A stretch of DNA of 39,628 nt. Origin: a virus. Where the stretch lies: the IMG/VR virus record IMGVR_UViG_3300045988_039580; one strand, 5' to 3'. Shown here piece after piece: positions 1 through 39,628 of the stretch; the first letter of the stretch is position 1, and every line of letters begins with the position of its first letter. The position numbers were made by a program, and so were the translations under genes. Below the pieces are notes generated by a model. It was not told the origin of the DNA. It did no database searches and saw nothing but the letters and a program-made list of their open reading frames with translations.

Positions 1-75
1 CACTCACATTGTAATGTATTACAGTTCATAAAGCAAGCAAAAAAGCGATAAATAAAGCATAAAATAAAAAAAAAG
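1..75. repeat. 75-bp direct terminal repeat, left copy (identical to 39554..39628)
   Basis: Read directly: cactcacattgtaatgtattacag...aaaataaaaaaaaag occurs at both ends of the window. Confidence 0.95.
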
Positions 76-105
76 AAGGGAATGCTATTTTTCAAGCATT
101 CCCTT
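61..105 (-). terminator. Strong rho-independent terminator ending the late/lysis operon
   Basis: 11-bp perfect stem (76..86 / 95..105), 8-nt loop, then CUUUUUUUUUAUUUU on the minus strand. The stop codon of the last lysis gene lies in the hairpin. Confidence 0.85.
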
Positions 106-333
106 GATCCGTTCCGAAAGATCTTTAACCTGTTCTTTTAGTGTAGCCACTTCCTTCTCCAGCTCGTTATGGCTTTCGATTTTTTTCGCCAGGCTGTCAA
201 CCTTTTTGTCCATCTGTTCCACTTTATAGTCCAGCAAGGCTGAATGTTTGGAGTTGCTGGTCCAGGTTGCTAGGACTGAAGGTACCCCGACGCAAAGTCC
301 GGATATGATCGCAACCAGAATTGTATCAGTCAT
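85..333 (-). CDS. Lysis-associated membrane protein, N-terminal TM helix plus coiled coil (XhlA-like architecture)
   Basis: 82 aa. Hydrophobic ILVAIISGLCVGVPSVLA followed by heptad-like K/E-rich helix. Start overlaps the holin stop (TAATG). Last gene before the terminator. Confidence 0.6.
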   Translation of the reverse strand: MTDTILVAIISGLCVGVPSVLATWTSNSKHSALLDYKVEQMDKKVDSLAKKIESHNELEKEVATLKEQVKDLSERIKGMLEK

Positions 334-542
334 TATTCTTCCTCATTTACTTCTGGCAAACCTGCTAGGCTTGTTAAAATTGAGCATACGCCTGCCACGA
401 CCGTTGTGCTCGCCGCGTACATCCAGTTTACGTCCGGAACGGCTGCGCCTACGGTGATAGAGGCTAGTGCTGTTTGAGCCATTGTCTTGATTGCTCGAAC
501 TCCTGCTGCTTCCCACCATGCTTTGTTTGTAAGTCTACTCAT
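333..542 (-). CDS. Holin (r1t-type-like)
   Basis: 69 aa with two hydrophobic segments. Pattern W..A..RAIKTMAQTA....W.....VVAGVCSILTSLAGLPE matches my recollection of r1t-family holins. GGAGGA RBS. Confidence 0.7.
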   Translation of the reverse strand: MSRLTNKAWWEAAGVRAIKTMAQTALASITVGAAVPDVNWMYAASTTVVAGVCSILTSLAGLPEVNEEE

Positions 543-2521: not shown

Positions 2522-3385
2522 CTATTTAAATGTTCCGTATGGACTTGTGTTAAATCCGGCCGAGTTTAGCTCCCCACAGGCCATCCATCTACGTGTTCCG
2601 TCTGCGCCAATCCAAGAAATCCAACAGTAGCCTTCTCGCTTCACGTACCCGTCATAATTGACGTGCTGTCCTTGAATATATGTTAGGCCTGTGTCCTGTC
2701 CTTTTAGGCTTGGCGCGCGTCTGATCTTGATTGTACAAGCAGGATAGAATGTAGCCTTTTCGTGTACAAAATCGGACGGGATACCGTTTAGCACGGATGC
2801 TGATCCAGTAGAAGTCTGGCTTCCCTGATTGAATGGTACACGGCTTGCATCTGTCCAATTTGCGAATGTTCCCTTATTTAAAATGACTGTTCCGTCTGTT
2901 ACGAATGCCAAGTCTGCAGAAATGTTATTAGGCAAGTGATATACTCCTTGCGAATTTCTGTCGTACATATGAGAGAACTTCCCTTTTGCAACTTCGATAT
3001 GCGCGTGATTTCCTGTTGCATATCCTGCAGTCCCTTCGTCTCCGAACGTGTCTCCTTGCTTGAAGTATTTCACTCTTTTGATATCCTCGATGTAGTTATC
3101 ATGAATGAACATAAATGTAGCGAAATCAATCGTTCCGTCTCTAAATAGTACTTTTTTGTCTGATTCTAGGAATACTGCATTTCCGTTTCGCGCCGAGTCA
3201 TAGGCTACTAGGTGACAGTCGCATGGTGCAATTGTTTCATCGATCCCGGTATCTTTGCCCGCGTTATCCATAGCATTTGTGCCTAGATGCGTTCCTACGT
3301 TGTTTCCTTGGGTTACATTCATGTACTCCATCGGAAAGCCTAAAAGCTGATATCCGCCTTTTGTAAGTTTTTGTCCTTTTCTCAT
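2522..3385 (-). CDS. Endolysin: M23-like metallopeptidase domain plus C-terminal SH3b-like cell-wall-binding domain
   Basis: 287 aa. THLGTNAMD ... GYATGNHAHIEV (HxH) fits the LytM/M23 layout. C-terminal GYCWISWIGADGTRRWMACGE looks SH3b-like. RBS AAGGAGG. Confidence 0.7.
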   Translation of the reverse strand: MRKGQKLTKGGYQLLGFPMEYMNVTQGNNVGTHLGTNAMDNAGKDTGIDETIAPCDCHLVAYDSARNGNAVFLESDKKVLFRDGTIDFATFMFIHDNYIEDIKRVKYFKQGDTFGDEGTAGYATGNHAHIEVAKGKFSHMYDRNSQGVYHLPNNISADLAFVTDGTVILNKGTFANWTDASRVPFNQGSQTSTGSASVLNGIPSDFVHEKATFYPACTIKIRRAPSLKGQDTGLTYIQGQHVNYDGYVKREGYCWISWIGADGTRRWMACGELNSAGFNTSPYGTFK

Positions 3386-25929: not shown

Positions 25930-26197
25930 TGGAAACGGATACGTGCGGAAACGCCTTTCAAACTCTTTATATATATACTATATTTTCTCGCGCGCATATG
26001 CATACACATGTACTGTATTACGCTATATTATATATATATTCATTAAGTTAGTAATATTTCTGTTTCCAGTGTTTCCAATAGCTTAGAAAGCCTTATTTTA
26101 TGCGGTGATTCCCTGGAAACGCTCTATGATTTTAGCGTTTCCATATCCGTTTCCACTGTTGCCTTGTATTTTTTTACAGCCGTTTCCAGCGTTTCCA
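25930..26197. repeat. Iteron array, (C/G)CGTTTCCA(G/C) family: putative replication origin
   Basis: GTTTCCA at 26062, 26071, 26137, 26149, 26182 and 26191. Inverted TGGAAAC at 25930 and 26114, and CGGAAAC at 25946. (TA)n runs and a 25-nt alternating Py-Pu tract at 25989..26013. Confidence 0.65.
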
Positions 26198-36741: not shown

Positions 36742-37362
36742 ATGAGTAAATTGAATGAAGTTTTATCTTCCAAGCTCCCTGAGCTGATGAAAGAGTCTGG
36801 TGTCAGTCGTAGAGATTTGGCCGAGTATTGTGGCGTTTCTTATAACACTGTACGGTGTTGGGAGGTTGGCACTAAAGCACCAAGGCCAGATATGGTTGTA
36901 AAAATTGCAGAGCGCTTCAACCTGAAACCTTTTGATCTGATGAGCGCGGCCTTTGAAGATTCTGCAGTAAGGCCCGTTCGTTTTCTGTCCCTGGTTGACG
37001 AGGACGGGTCTGTATCTAAGTCGAATAGCTCGTCAGTCTTCACTTCTACGGCTACAGATGTTACAGCGGATTATATTTATGTTATGCCCGATGAAACTAT
37101 GTATAAGGCGGATATTATCAAGGGCGACATCTGCCTGATCCGTGCCACAGGTGCTATTCGTGCTGGTGTGCCTATGCTAGTAAAATATCAAGGTAAAGCT
37201 ATGCTGCGCTTTATTATTACGCATAACGAAACGAATCAGATTGCTTTACGTACTGCCAGTCCGTATGCGATTGGGACTCTCTTCTCAACGTCCGACTTTC
37301 ATGATCAGGTTCAAGTGTTGGGCGTTTTAGTCGCTTTTCGTAGAAATTATAAAAGAAGGTAA
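36742..37362 (+). CDS. CI/LexA-like repressor: N-terminal HTH plus C-terminal S24-like domain with substituted catalytic dyad
   Basis: 206 aa. HTH VSRRDLAEYCGVSYNTVRCWEVG. S24-like YVMPDETMYKADIIKGD...GKAMLRFI, with Thr119 and Arg156 where Ser and Lys are expected. Confidence 0.75.
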   Translation: MSKLNEVLSSKLPELMKESGVSRRDLAEYCGVSYNTVRCWEVGTKAPRPDMVVKIAERFNLKPFDLMSAAFEDSAVRPVRFLSLVDEDGSVSKSNSSSVFTSTATDVTADYIYVMPDETMYKADIIKGDICLIRATGAIRAGVPMLVKYQGKAMLRFIITHNETNQIALRTASPYAIGTLFSTSDFHDQVQVLGVLVAFRRNYKRR

Positions 37363-37368
37363 TCTCCT

Positions 37369-38475
37369 ATGGCTCAGCAAAAGGACACAAAAAGGGGAAC
37401 CTGGATGTTCTATGGTTCCTGTAAAGATATTACCGGAAAGACTCAGCGATATTGTCGTCGAGGTTTCAAAACAAAAAAGGAAGCAAAAGAAGCCGAGTTT
37501 GCCTTCCGTCTGGAAATGACTACCGCTCGGCCTTCTATAACCTTAAATGAAATGTTTCAGGTATACTGCAAAAACGCAGAGAATATGTCCGTAAAAGGAT
37601 CCACTCTCTATACGCACGAACATACTTATAGAAATCACATCCAGGATGATTTGGGAAGCTTGAAGCTTACGGCGCTTACGACTCCCGTTCTGGATCAGTG
37701 GAGAAACCGTCTGCTTCAAAAGAAAAAACCAAACGGTCAGCTTTATGCAGCCCCCACTTTAAATGGCATTTTAGATACACTTTCCGTTATTCTTTCCTAT
37801 TCCGTTAGACTTGGATATCTTGAAGTCAACCCGTGCAGATCTTTGCCTATCGTGAAAGATAAACGGAACCTGAAGGACCAGAGTCTGTTATTCTGGGAGC
37901 AGGAAACCTTTACTTATTTTATATCCTGCGTGGACGACCCGTATTGGCGTGATGTCTTTATGTTTATGTATGGCACTGGTGTCCGTAAATCTGAAATGTT
38001 TGCCCTCCAATGGTCGGATGTTGATCTAGGCAGAGGCCGGGTGCATATTTCAAAAACATTAACTATAAAAACAGAATCGGCTCCGTGGGAGATTACTCCA
38101 CCTAAATCTAAAAACTCAAACAGATATATTGATCTACAGGATACCCTTCTAGATTGCCTAAGGCGTCGCTATAGCGAGCAACAAAAGAAGGACGGGTTCT
38201 CGTCCTCCTGGTTTGTGTTTGGCCATATAAAGCCACTTCTGGCGCCCAGACTGGCTGTTGCTTTGAAGAGATATATCCAGGCTGCTGGTGTTCCGCCTAT
38301 CTCCCCTCATGGCTTTAGACACTCTCATGCGACTCTGCTGATTCGTGCCGGTGTAGATGATCAGCTGATCGCAGAAAGGCTAGGGCACTCTGTTAGTGAA
38401 TTAAGAAAAACTTATGCGCATATATACTCCGAATCTAGGCGTGAAATGCTGGATAAATTGAACAAAATTTTATAA
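37369..38475 (+). CDS. int: Tyrosine integrase
   Basis: 368 aa. ...GVRKSEMFALQWSDV..., HGFRHSHATLL, LGHSVSELRKTYAHIY (R-H-R-Y catalytic set). Confidence 0.95.
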   Translation: MAQQKDTKRGTWMFYGSCKDITGKTQRYCRRGFKTKKEAKEAEFAFRLEMTTARPSITLNEMFQVYCKNAENMSVKGSTLYTHEHTYRNHIQDDLGSLKLTALTTPVLDQWRNRLLQKKKPNGQLYAAPTLNGILDTLSVILSYSVRLGYLEVNPCRSLPIVKDKRNLKDQSLLFWEQETFTYFISCVDDPYWRDVFMFMYGTGVRKSEMFALQWSDVDLGRGRVHISKTLTIKTESAPWEITPPKSKNSNRYIDLQDTLLDCLRRRYSEQQKKDGFSSSWFVFGHIKPLLAPRLAVALKRYIQAAGVPPISPHGFRHSHATLLIRAGVDDQLIAERLGHSVSELRKTYAHIYSESRREMLDKLNKIL

Positions 38476-38480
38476 AAAAA

Positions 38481-38500
38481 ATACATCAAAAACACATCAC
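38481..38500 (+). repeat. 20-nt direct repeat ATACATCAAAAACACATCAC (partner at 38663..38682, 1 mismatch)
   Basis: Read directly. The pair flanks the putative attP region. Confidence 0.85.
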
Positions 38501-38501
38501 G

Positions 38502-38545
38502 AAGTAGCTAGGTGCCTTATATATAGGCGTTTTAGCTACTTTTTC
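38502..38545 (+). terminator. Integrase terminator
   Basis: 9-bp stem AAGTAGCTA / TAGCTACTT with an inner GCCT/AGGC helix, followed by TTTTC. Confidence 0.6.
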
Positions 38546-38662
38546 TCTATGTTAAACCTTTAATGCTTGTGTTTCCTTATGTCTCGTTTTGTTTTATCTA
38601 TATCCGTTTTGACTGCTTTTGTTGCTTACTGTTCTTTCTTGATTCTAGAACTTTTAGTCTCT

Positions 38663-38682
38663 ATACATCAAAAATACATCAC
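38663..38682 (+). repeat. 20-nt direct repeat ATACATCAAAAATACATCAC
   Basis: Read directly. Confidence 0.85.
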
Positions 38683-38694
38683 AAGAAAAGGGGC

Positions 38695-38889
38695 CTACTC
38701 GGCCTCTTTCTTTTGTCGTTCTATGTCTTCCCTGATCAGGTCTTTTAGATATCTGTTGACGCTCTCCTTTGTTCCTAGATATTCCAGAATGTCTGCGTCA
38801 TGTTTTAGATGAAGCCTGAAGGTCTTGATCTTGTAAGTTTTATCGCTCCATTTTTGATTTGCTCTTTTTCTTGCCTCTGATACTGCCAT
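38695..38889 (-). CDS. Ribbon-helix-helix (Arc/CopG-like) DNA-binding protein
   Basis: 64 aa. KTYKIKTFRLHLKHDADILEYLGTKESVNRYLKDLIREDIE fits a strand-helix-helix layout. GAGGAG RBS. Confidence 0.65.
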   Translation of the reverse strand: MAVSEARKRANQKWSDKTYKIKTFRLHLKHDADILEYLGTKESVNRYLKDLIREDIERQKKEAE

Positions 38890-38912
38890 GTGTTCTATCT
38901 CCTCTACTCTTA

Positions 38913-39140
38913 TTATATATTTAGCATCTGGATCATTTCAACTTCTTCTTGTAACCCCTCGATATTCTCGAGGGCTCTTTGTGCTGTGTCTACTGCTTCT
39001 CGAACTGTGTCCCAGTCTTCTCCTTCAGGTTCATTGTTTAGAATGTTTACAGCTTCCGCTATGGCTTCTTTGTATGTACTTTGTATCCACTCTATTTCCT
39101 TTTTTCTACGATCCAATAAATCTTTTGTAATAGCATCCAT
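38913..39140 (-). CDS. Small acidic helical protein, unknown function
   Basis: 75 aa. Tightly packed in the operon. Confidence 0.6.
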   Translation of the reverse strand: MDAITKDLLDRRKKEIEWIQSTYKEAIAEAVNILNNEPEGEDWDTVREAVDTAQRALENIEGLQEEVEMIQMLNI

Positions 39141-39143
39141 GTT

Positions 39144-39305
39144 CTATTCCTCTATTATTTCCATGATTACGTCCAAGGCGTCTTCATCGCAATTGTGCTT
39201 GTATAGCCAGCTTTCTATTTCTTTTAGAGTCATCATGTGTCTATCGTAATACAATTGATCCAGCACTTCTTCCTTTAGTCTCATTGCTGCTTCTTCTCTA
39301 GTCAT
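39144..39305 (-). CDS. Small acidic protein (below the ORF-track cutoff)
   Basis: 53 aa, MTREEAAMRLKEEVLDQLYYDRHMMTLKEIESWLYKHNCDEDALDVIMEIIEE. Exactly fills the gap between neighbours (1-nt and 3-nt spacers). Confidence 0.55.
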   Translation of the reverse strand: MTREEAAMRLKEEVLDQLYYDRHMMTLKEIESWLYKHNCDEDALDVIMEIIEE

Positions 39306-39306
39306 A

Positions 39307-39528
39307 TTAAGCTTCCTCCTGTAGTGTTCTAATTTGGCGTTGTGATTCTTGAATCAATGTTTCATATACGTCTGCTTCGTAAGCTAATTTTCTGATTTTT
39401 CCGAAGTCAATGTCTCTTTCTTCTCTTTCGATTGCGTTTAGTTCGTATTGAATTTCCTTTGCGATTCTTGTTTGTTCTTCAATCCAGTTTTGAATTCTAG
39501 TTTCTAGTGTTTCGATTTCTGTTTTCAT
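39307..39528 (-). CDS. Small coiled-coil protein, unknown function
   Basis: 73 aa. First gene after the promoter in the terminal repeat. Confidence 0.6.
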   Translation of the reverse strand: MKTEIETLETRIQNWIEEQTRIAKEIQYELNAIEREERDIDFGKIRKLAYEADVYETLIQESQRQIRTLQEEA

Positions 39529-39553
39529 TGTGTTCTATCTCTCTTTCTTTTTA

Positions 39554-39628
39554 CACTCACATTGTAATGTATTACAGTTCATAAAGCAAGCAAAAAAGCG
39601 ATAAATAAAGCATAAAATAAAAAAAAAG
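39554..39628. repeat. 75-bp direct terminal repeat, right copy
   Basis: Identical to 1..75. Confidence 0.95.
39561..39589 (-). promoter_or_regulatory. Promoter TTGCTT-17 nt-TACAAT with 14-bp palindrome TGTAAT-GT-ATTACA (39563..39576) overlapping the -10
   Basis: -35 at 39589..39584 and -10 at 39566..39561 on the minus strand. Same sequence at 8..36. Lies immediately downstream of the late terminator on the circular map. Confidence 0.55.

Follow-up and report, generated by a model that had tools for sequence, protein, structure and literature searches.

We provide evidence that a compact block of genes on the minus strand of IMG/VR virus record IMGVR_UViG_3300045988_039580 (positions 38695 to 39589) is best explained, albeit tentatively, as a self-contained and autoregulated accessory operon, carried by a temperate phage of the human-gut bacterium Holdemanella, with a payload that would most likely serve anti-defense or host takeover. 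The whole stretch of DNA that we analyzed, 39,628 nucleotides (nt) and hereafter the window, is the circular genome of a temperate Holdemanella phage, a siphovirus. Its positions 1 to 75 are identical to positions 39554 to 39628, and this 75-bp terminal overlap makes the map circular and the genome 39,553 bp. In the block, which we refer to as the cassette, three small acidic genes (A, B, and C) precede a gene, R, for a small basic protein that we assign through an intermediate homologue to the ribbon-helix-helix (RHH) proteins and that quite probably binds an operator over the −10 element of the cassette's own promoter and represses it. In phages that infect strictly anaerobic commensals of the gut, anti-defense genes have hardly been explored, and anti-CRISPR-associated (Aca) regulators of the RHH type were recognized only in 2026, in Proteobacteria.

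An earlier note on this DNA had described a late terminator, a minus-strand promoter with a palindrome overlapping its −10 element, and four open reading frames (ORFs) of 73, 53, 75, and 64 amino acids (aa) separated by 1 to 23 nt. All of these are present as described, with gaps of 1, 3, and 23 nt for A-B, B-C, and C-R, respectively. In the direction of transcription, the features of the locus are the following.

66..105, minus strand: intrinsic terminator of the late/lysis operon, an 11-bp stem-loop at 105..76 and then a T-run
39584..39589, minus strand: −35 element of the cassette promoter, TTGCTT (same letters at 31-36 in the terminal overlap)
39561..39566, minus strand: −10 element of the cassette promoter, TACAAT, at a 17-nt spacer from the −35 element
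39563-39576, no strand assigned: candidate operator, the perfect palindrome TGTAAT-GT-ATTACA (TGTAATACATTACA), overlapping the −10 element
39307..39528, minus strand: gene A, first ORF, 73 aa, acidic (isoelectric point, pI, 4.6; net charge −7)
39144..39305, minus strand: gene B, 53 aa, acidic (pI 4.45; net charge −9)
38913..39140, minus strand: gene C, 75 aa, the most acidic (pI 4.2; net charge −11)
38912..38941, minus strand: near-consensus promoter-like site, TTGAAA-18-TATAAT (11/12), inside the 3′ end of C and just upstream of R
38695..38889, minus strand: gene R, last ORF, 64 aa, basic (pI 9.5)
38687..38709, minus strand: intrinsic terminator of the cassette, with the R stop codon in its stem and attP beyond it
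38476..38686, no strand assigned: attP, between the cassette terminator and the integrase gene

The promoter begins ~40 nt beyond the late terminator, the folding energy of which is −21.2 kcal/mol (z = −3.6). What had been called a strong promoter is a moderate one: it matches the consensus at 8 of 12 positions, and a simple scanner missed it because its −35 element matches at 3 of 6 only. The strong acidity previously attributed to the products of B and C is real, and A is acidic too. In the mechanism that we propose, host RNA polymerase would start at TTGCTT-17-TACAAT independently of the late operon, which ends at the terminator 40 nt upstream, and the transcript would carry the acidic payload of A, B, and C and then R. 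An R dimer with its N-terminal helix would bind the dyad TGTAAT..ATTACA (core TGTA-N-TACA) over the −10 element, accumulated R would shut the promoter, and transcription would end at the terminator before attP. The near-consensus site inside C may be a separate promoter that gives R a transcript of its own. The payload proteins would act by binding host proteins, and the make-up of the payload is reshuffled among related phages.

The regulatory part of this mechanism draws support from 57 related loci, 10 of which were retrieved by exact look-up of R and 47 via the neighboring lysis gene. DNA reaches the promoter site in 50 of them; the TTGCTT −35 element is unchanged in 50/50, and the operator site is recognizable in 50/50. 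The most variable part of this nearly fixed intergenic region is the 20 nt between the −35 element and the transcription start, and the state of these 20 nt tracks R. Wherever TGTAATACATTA(C/T)A is kept and the contig reaches the R gene, the dyad is intact, the −10 element is TACAAT or TATAAT, and R is present (35/35 loci, in one of which the contig ends at R residue 57). Two independent deletions have removed R from nine loci: the first took the N-terminal half and the start codon of R in eight of them, and in the ninth (L075) the second left a fusion in which the beginning of C runs into the last part of R. The dyad is altered in 9/9 of these loci, the −10 element of which is CACAAT, CATGAT, or TACAGT (4/6 versus TATAAT). 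Full-length R accompanies an altered dyad in three loci, with a −10 element of TACAGT in L008 and L107 and of TATAAT in L090. A compensatory double change in one variant, from TAATGTA-A-TACATTA to TGATGTA-A-TACATCA, keeps the dyad, and the operator core TGTA-N-TACA is constant in every variant. The simplest reading of these alignments is that R represses the cassette promoter and that the loss of R was followed by, or is only tolerated with, a weaker promoter.

The palindrome carries weight through its position, its uniqueness in the genome, and its conservation and co-variation in relatives. It occurs as a single copy without mismatch at 39563-39576, and its absence elsewhere, including the region of CI and Cro, makes control of the cassette by the main CI repressor unlikely. 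Two matches with two mismatches, at 26009-26022 and 26165-26178, lie in one 200-bp intergenic region among the early genes, and their count is within chance. On the opposite (plus) strand, a promoter-like site (TTTACA-17-TACAGT; 9/12; 39550-39578) runs across the palindrome and points into the late terminator, probably by chance.

The RHH signature that had been noticed in R stands by transitive homology only, and not as a direct Pfam match. The link is an IMG/VR homologue (locus L188) that matches R by BLASTP (1e−8) and by hhalign (96%) and that itself passes the Pfam family Arc (PF03869) with 27.6 bits versus a cut-off of 20.4. R had no direct match in Pfam, PHROGs, or NCBIfam and nothing significant in PADLOC. 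A PDB sequence search with the R-family profile returned noise and a weak match to the RHH protein 2k1o (E = 0.49), and searches of 50,697 GenBank phage records with the R protein, and likewise with the slot DNA, found no match. A word-indexed search retrieved only ~25 relatives of R; the pattern that the family shares is sEAxKRAxxKY, then a strand, DADILxxL, and YIKRLIREDi. The exact 64-aa sequence occurs in 157 blocks of a public assembly collection. An AlphaFold2 monomer model of R, with a predicted local distance difference test (pLDDT) score of 85, places a helix at residues 5-18, an extended segment at 19-31, and helices at 32-38 and 44-63, and as modeled it fits the look of an RHH subunit without its partner. 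R-like domains are also fused to other modules in distant genomes (L041 3196-3690, L058 1839-2372, and L061 4144-4635); by motif (SYARDEAEPTSDVDLLIE), the C-terminal part of the L041 fusion is nucleotidyltransferase-like, and the L058 and L061 proteins are longer fusions.

Profile comparison makes it probable that the R family is distantly homologous to Aca14, the first stand-alone RHH-type Aca repressor, encoded by Pasteurella multocida (WP_005725436.1; bioRxiv 10.64898/2026.07.27.740549). Aca14 consists of an N-terminal helical extension and an RHH domain; the inverted repeat that it recognizes, TGTATATG-N4-CATATACA (TGTATATGTAAGCATATACA), overlaps the −10 element, and the system was validated by electrophoretic mobility shift and reporter assays (bioRxiv 10.64898/2026.07.27.740549). 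In hhalign, the R-family profile aligned with Aca14 over 41-49 columns, almost the whole length, with a probability of 78-79% and a score of 29.3. As controls, 100 shuffles of Aca14 scored 9.7 ± 2.1 (maximum 16.9), a comparison that overstates significance, and Arc, Mnt, and CopG scored 7.7-13.8. Like Aca14, R is small (~65 aa), with an N-terminal basic helix ahead of the RHH domain; this helix (residues 5-18 of the AlphaFold2 model), which recalls the helical extension of Aca14, bears the motif sEAxKRAxxKY conserved across the R family. Both genes come last in a short series of small genes transcribed as one operon, the promoter of which has its −10 element overlapped by an AT-rich inverted repeat bounded by TGTA and TACA. 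The two systems differ in that the R-operon dyad spans 14 bp and that of Aca14 20 bp, in that the host of the R operon is a Bacillota gut anaerobe and that of Aca14 a gammaproteobacterium, and in that the R operon lacks any known acr, csx20, or restriction-modification gene. Binding and repression are validated for Aca14 and predicted for R. A second 2026 paper describes RHH-mediated autorepression for AcrIE10 (PMC13530269), which together with Aca14 establishes this kind of system.

Seven gene families (Z, A, B, C, H1, H2, and R) are combined in mosaic fashion in the slot that the cassette occupies, and the 57 loci display at least 12 arrangements of them. Z is 79 aa long; H1 and H2, at ~125 aa, are paralogues, each with an N-terminal XRE-type helix-turn-helix (HTH) domain and an acidic C-terminal one. 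One or two of these paralogues are inserted directly upstream of R in many loci (L004 9246-9999; L065-L110). In the 46 related slots with readable gene content, B is always present and C is optional (20/46). No paralogy was detectable among A, Z, and C (hhalign at most 1%). The promoter region is conserved regardless of which gene stands first, and the slot is found with two integrase/attB types. All slot genes are under purifying selection. The ratio of nonsynonymous to synonymous substitution rates (dN/dS) is 0.03 for R, the same pace as the lysis gene, and 0.23-0.40 for A, B, C, and Z, 7-13 times faster. Comparison of this slot among relatives had been suggested as a check for gene turnover around a conserved RHH gene. 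Turnover there certainly is; R, deleted in nine loci, is not the fixed anchor that had been envisaged.

A leader, GAGATAGAACAC(A), recurs directly 5′ of the ATG of A, Z, R, and H2 (39529-39541 and 38890-38902 of the window; junctions of L004 and L069), and L004 carries a 24-nt copy ahead of both Z and A. This repeated junction could drive cassette exchange.

The payload genes A, B, and C had nothing significant in Pfam, PHROGs, NCBIfam, or PADLOC and no match among PDB sequences, any solved anti-CRISPR (Acr) protein included; C also had no match in the 50,697 GenBank phage records. Among 5.8 billion proteins, A had 341 matches, the 120 listed all being at least 86% identical, and B had 15, close relatives only; the B profile found 8 among 1.84 billion representatives. 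Judged by these searches, A and B are ORFs without wider kin (ORFans), confined to Holdemanella phages. B had been described as helical, and its model indeed has three helices (pLDDT 70.6); A is probably a helical hairpin. Neither the PDB nor BFVD yielded a structural match to the B model in Foldseek, and the structure search that had been proposed as a check, carried out with R (PDB) and B (PDB and BFVD), brought up nothing significant. As read from their sequences, the payload proteins contain neither membrane segments nor signal peptides such as are typical of exclusion proteins. We infer an anti-defense payload from the small size, acidity, and cytoplasmic nature of these ORFans, from their fast evolution and the turnover of cassettes, from the Aca-like character of the repressor, and from a host species that encodes a Cas9 (bioRxiv 10.1101/2024.04.09.587696), and we hold this to be somewhat less likely than not.

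This combination of features invites comparison with characterized anti-CRISPR loci. In Listeria prophages, acrIIA loci have AcrIIA1 as an autorepressor, and acr operons of Pseudomonas and Pectobacterium phages are under the control of Aca1 and Aca2. The order found here, a promoter with an operator, a small and fast-evolving payload, and then a small DNA-binding protein that we propose as autorepressor, is that of the acrIIA and Aca1/Aca2 operons, and in all of them the regulator is more conserved than the changing set of genes beside it; like Listeria acrIIA, the cassette adjoins the lysis genes at the prophage end. The H1 and H2 proteins of relatives, with an XRE-type HTH domain and an acidic C-terminal domain and placed before R, recall the two-domain AcrIIA1, but the best PDB sequence matches of H1 are SinR and HipB and not AcrIIA1. 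The cassette further differs from these systems in having an RHH rather than an HTH regulator, the loss of which is tolerated in this phage group, and in having no payload gene homologous to any solved Acr. The acr/aca-like reading of the earlier note is thus supported in its layout and in its regulatory logic; no tie between A, B, or C and anti-defense proteins was found. In its most specific form, this reading would make A, B, C, and Z new anti-defense families (for example, inhibitors of the Holdemanella Cas9 or of a different system), with H1 and H2 as possible members, exchanged at a hotspot under a Bacillota branch of Aca14-like RHH regulators, which we consider somewhat unlikely in that full form. 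If true, it would make a prophage that is widespread in the human gut a source of several candidate inhibitor families and extend RHH control of anti-defense loci to Bacillota. The repressor-less phages, which also carry weaker promoters, would then constitute a natural experiment, reminiscent of the cost that acr promoters are known to impose when unrepressed, and the R family could mark anti-defense loci, through guilt by association, in gut Erysipelotrichaceae, Clostridia, and Coriobacteriia. Should the payload have another role, the locus would still be a clear case of a moron slot with mosaic content and autoregulation.

A range of results weighs against an R-controlled anti-defense operon. 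The link between R and the operator is drawn from related, non-independent lineages, which makes it suggestive and no statistical proof. L008 has an altered operator with an identical R, L107 has one with an R of 89% identity, and R is dispensable in nature, so that strict repression is not essential. Palindromes with 6-bp arms are no rarer than chance (49 in the genome versus 41.5 ± 6.4 in shuffles). Across 54 genome and 46 viral loci of distant R homologues, there is no consistent AT-rich inverted repeat upstream, in a set in which ORF calling is unreliable in high-GC genomes. These homologues stand in mixed contexts: a Pfam survey of 150 neighbors found three GH25/CW_7 lysins, a few resolvases and HTH proteins, and many host genes. 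Foldseek with the R monomer model had no significant match in the PDB, where the RHH protein SegB ranked third at E = 8. The match to Aca14 is remote, with an hhalign probability below 80%, and BLASTP between R and Aca14 found nothing. The payload, finally, has no known anti-defense homologue in general libraries, a scan that left dbAPIS and AntiDefenseFinder outside, and the argument for an anti-defense function is one of context.

The alternative that survives best is a lysogenic-conversion cassette, or moron, in which the regulation would be the same and the payload, expressed from the prophage, would benefit the lysogen, for example through phage exclusion or host physiology, instead of countering host defense during infection. 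We regard it as somewhat unlikely. The cassette lies at the prophage end, where morons are classically found, has its own host-type promoter and terminators, and is carried by many integrated prophages of gut metagenomes, and in integrated copies the loss of R is tolerated. Its payload, however, lacks the membrane segments and signal peptides typical of exclusion proteins, the PADLOC defense models have no match in it, and small acidic cytoplasmic ORFans accompanied by an Aca-like repressor suit anti-defense loci better.

Improbable, to our minds, is a palindrome that arose by chance, with R regulating something else or nothing and the ORFs being ordinary, constitutively expressed phage genes. 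The abundance of 6-bp-arm palindromes, the altered operator of L008 beside an identical R, and the lack of an inverted repeat shared with the distant R homologues all suit such a scenario. A chance origin is hard to reconcile with a site that is unique in the genome and overlaps the −10 element, with the presence of R in all 35 loci with an intact dyad and the degradation of the dyad in 9/9 loci without R, or with the compensatory double change.

In phage P22, the RHH repressors Arc and Mnt of immI control the ant promoter. A switch of this type, in which R would control antirepressor-like proteins acting on the CI-type repressor of its own or a neighboring prophage, is slightly more improbable still. 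Its appeal lies in the likeness of a phage RHH repressor (proposed here) at a dyad operator overlapping a promoter that is not part of the main immunity region; the phage is temperate and encodes a CI-like repressor of the HTH plus S24 type. The gene order differs, however, with the RHH gene last in the operon here and arc first in P22; no Ant homologue was found, Pfam and PHROGs searches revealed no likeness to any known antirepressor family, and neither Arc nor Mnt is matched by the R profile. Integrated prophages without R but with A and/or B also persist, which is hard to square with an unrepressed antirepressor directed against the repressor of the phage itself.

Natural deletions dispose of the weakest candidates, a toxin-antitoxin cassette with R as RHH antitoxin (an alternative raised in the earlier note) and an excision module with R as directionality factor at attP, both of which we reject as very improbable. 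In their favor, RHH domains are common in antitoxins, a distant homologue of R (L041) is fused to a nucleotidyltransferase-like domain, and R has an arm-type attP repeat as its immediate neighbor. Against them, Pfam, PHROGs, NCBIfam, and PADLOC revealed no toxin family, and R comes last, behind tiny, acidic products. R is missing from nine loci in which B, along with A and/or Z, remains intact, a loss that would be lethal for a toxin-antitoxin pair. The L086 phage, with truncated R, is on a contig in the excised form (R′-attP-int), so that R is not required for excision.

Early, structural, and lysis genes are encoded on the minus strand. A lysogeny module, the last two genes of which are those for a CI-like repressor and the integrase, occupies the plus strand. 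The features neighboring the cassette are these.

36742-37362, plus strand: CI-like HTH and S24 repressor, 206 aa, of the lysogeny module
37369..38475, plus strand: tyrosine integrase with an Arm-DNA-bind_4 domain, converging on the cassette across attP
2522-3385, minus strand: SH3_5 lysin, 287 aa, the presumed endolysin of the lysis region
333-542, minus strand: r1t-type holin of the lysis region
85-333, minus strand: DUF7365 coiled-coil protein, last gene of the lysis region, with its stop codon inside the loop of the late terminator

In the presumed endolysin, Pfam recognizes the C-terminal SH3_5 cell-wall-binding domain only, and the first ~200 residues have no recognized catalytic domain. 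Rfam and tRNA scans of the cassette region were empty.

Holdemanella is indicated as the host by the host-flank proteins of integrated copies, which are named H. biformis or H. porci in public records. The junction between phage and host in these copies is at ~38551, and the cassette is the final stretch of phage DNA, with host genes next; the placement in a moron slot, between the lysis genes and attP and at the prophage end beside host DNA, is as had been suggested. Direct repeats, ATACATCAAAAA(C/T)ACATCAC, at 38481-38500 and 38663-38682 (95% identical) flank the crossover region on either side and are probably arm-type binding sites for the integrase. The phage group uses two attachment sites (L001-L006 versus L003, L009, and L010), one adjoining a 203-205-aa host gene and an HTH-cupin gene and the other a Nitro_FeMo-Co gene and thrS. 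It likewise has two integrase types, that of L086 being 63% identical to the integrase of the window, and the accessory slot is unchanged throughout.

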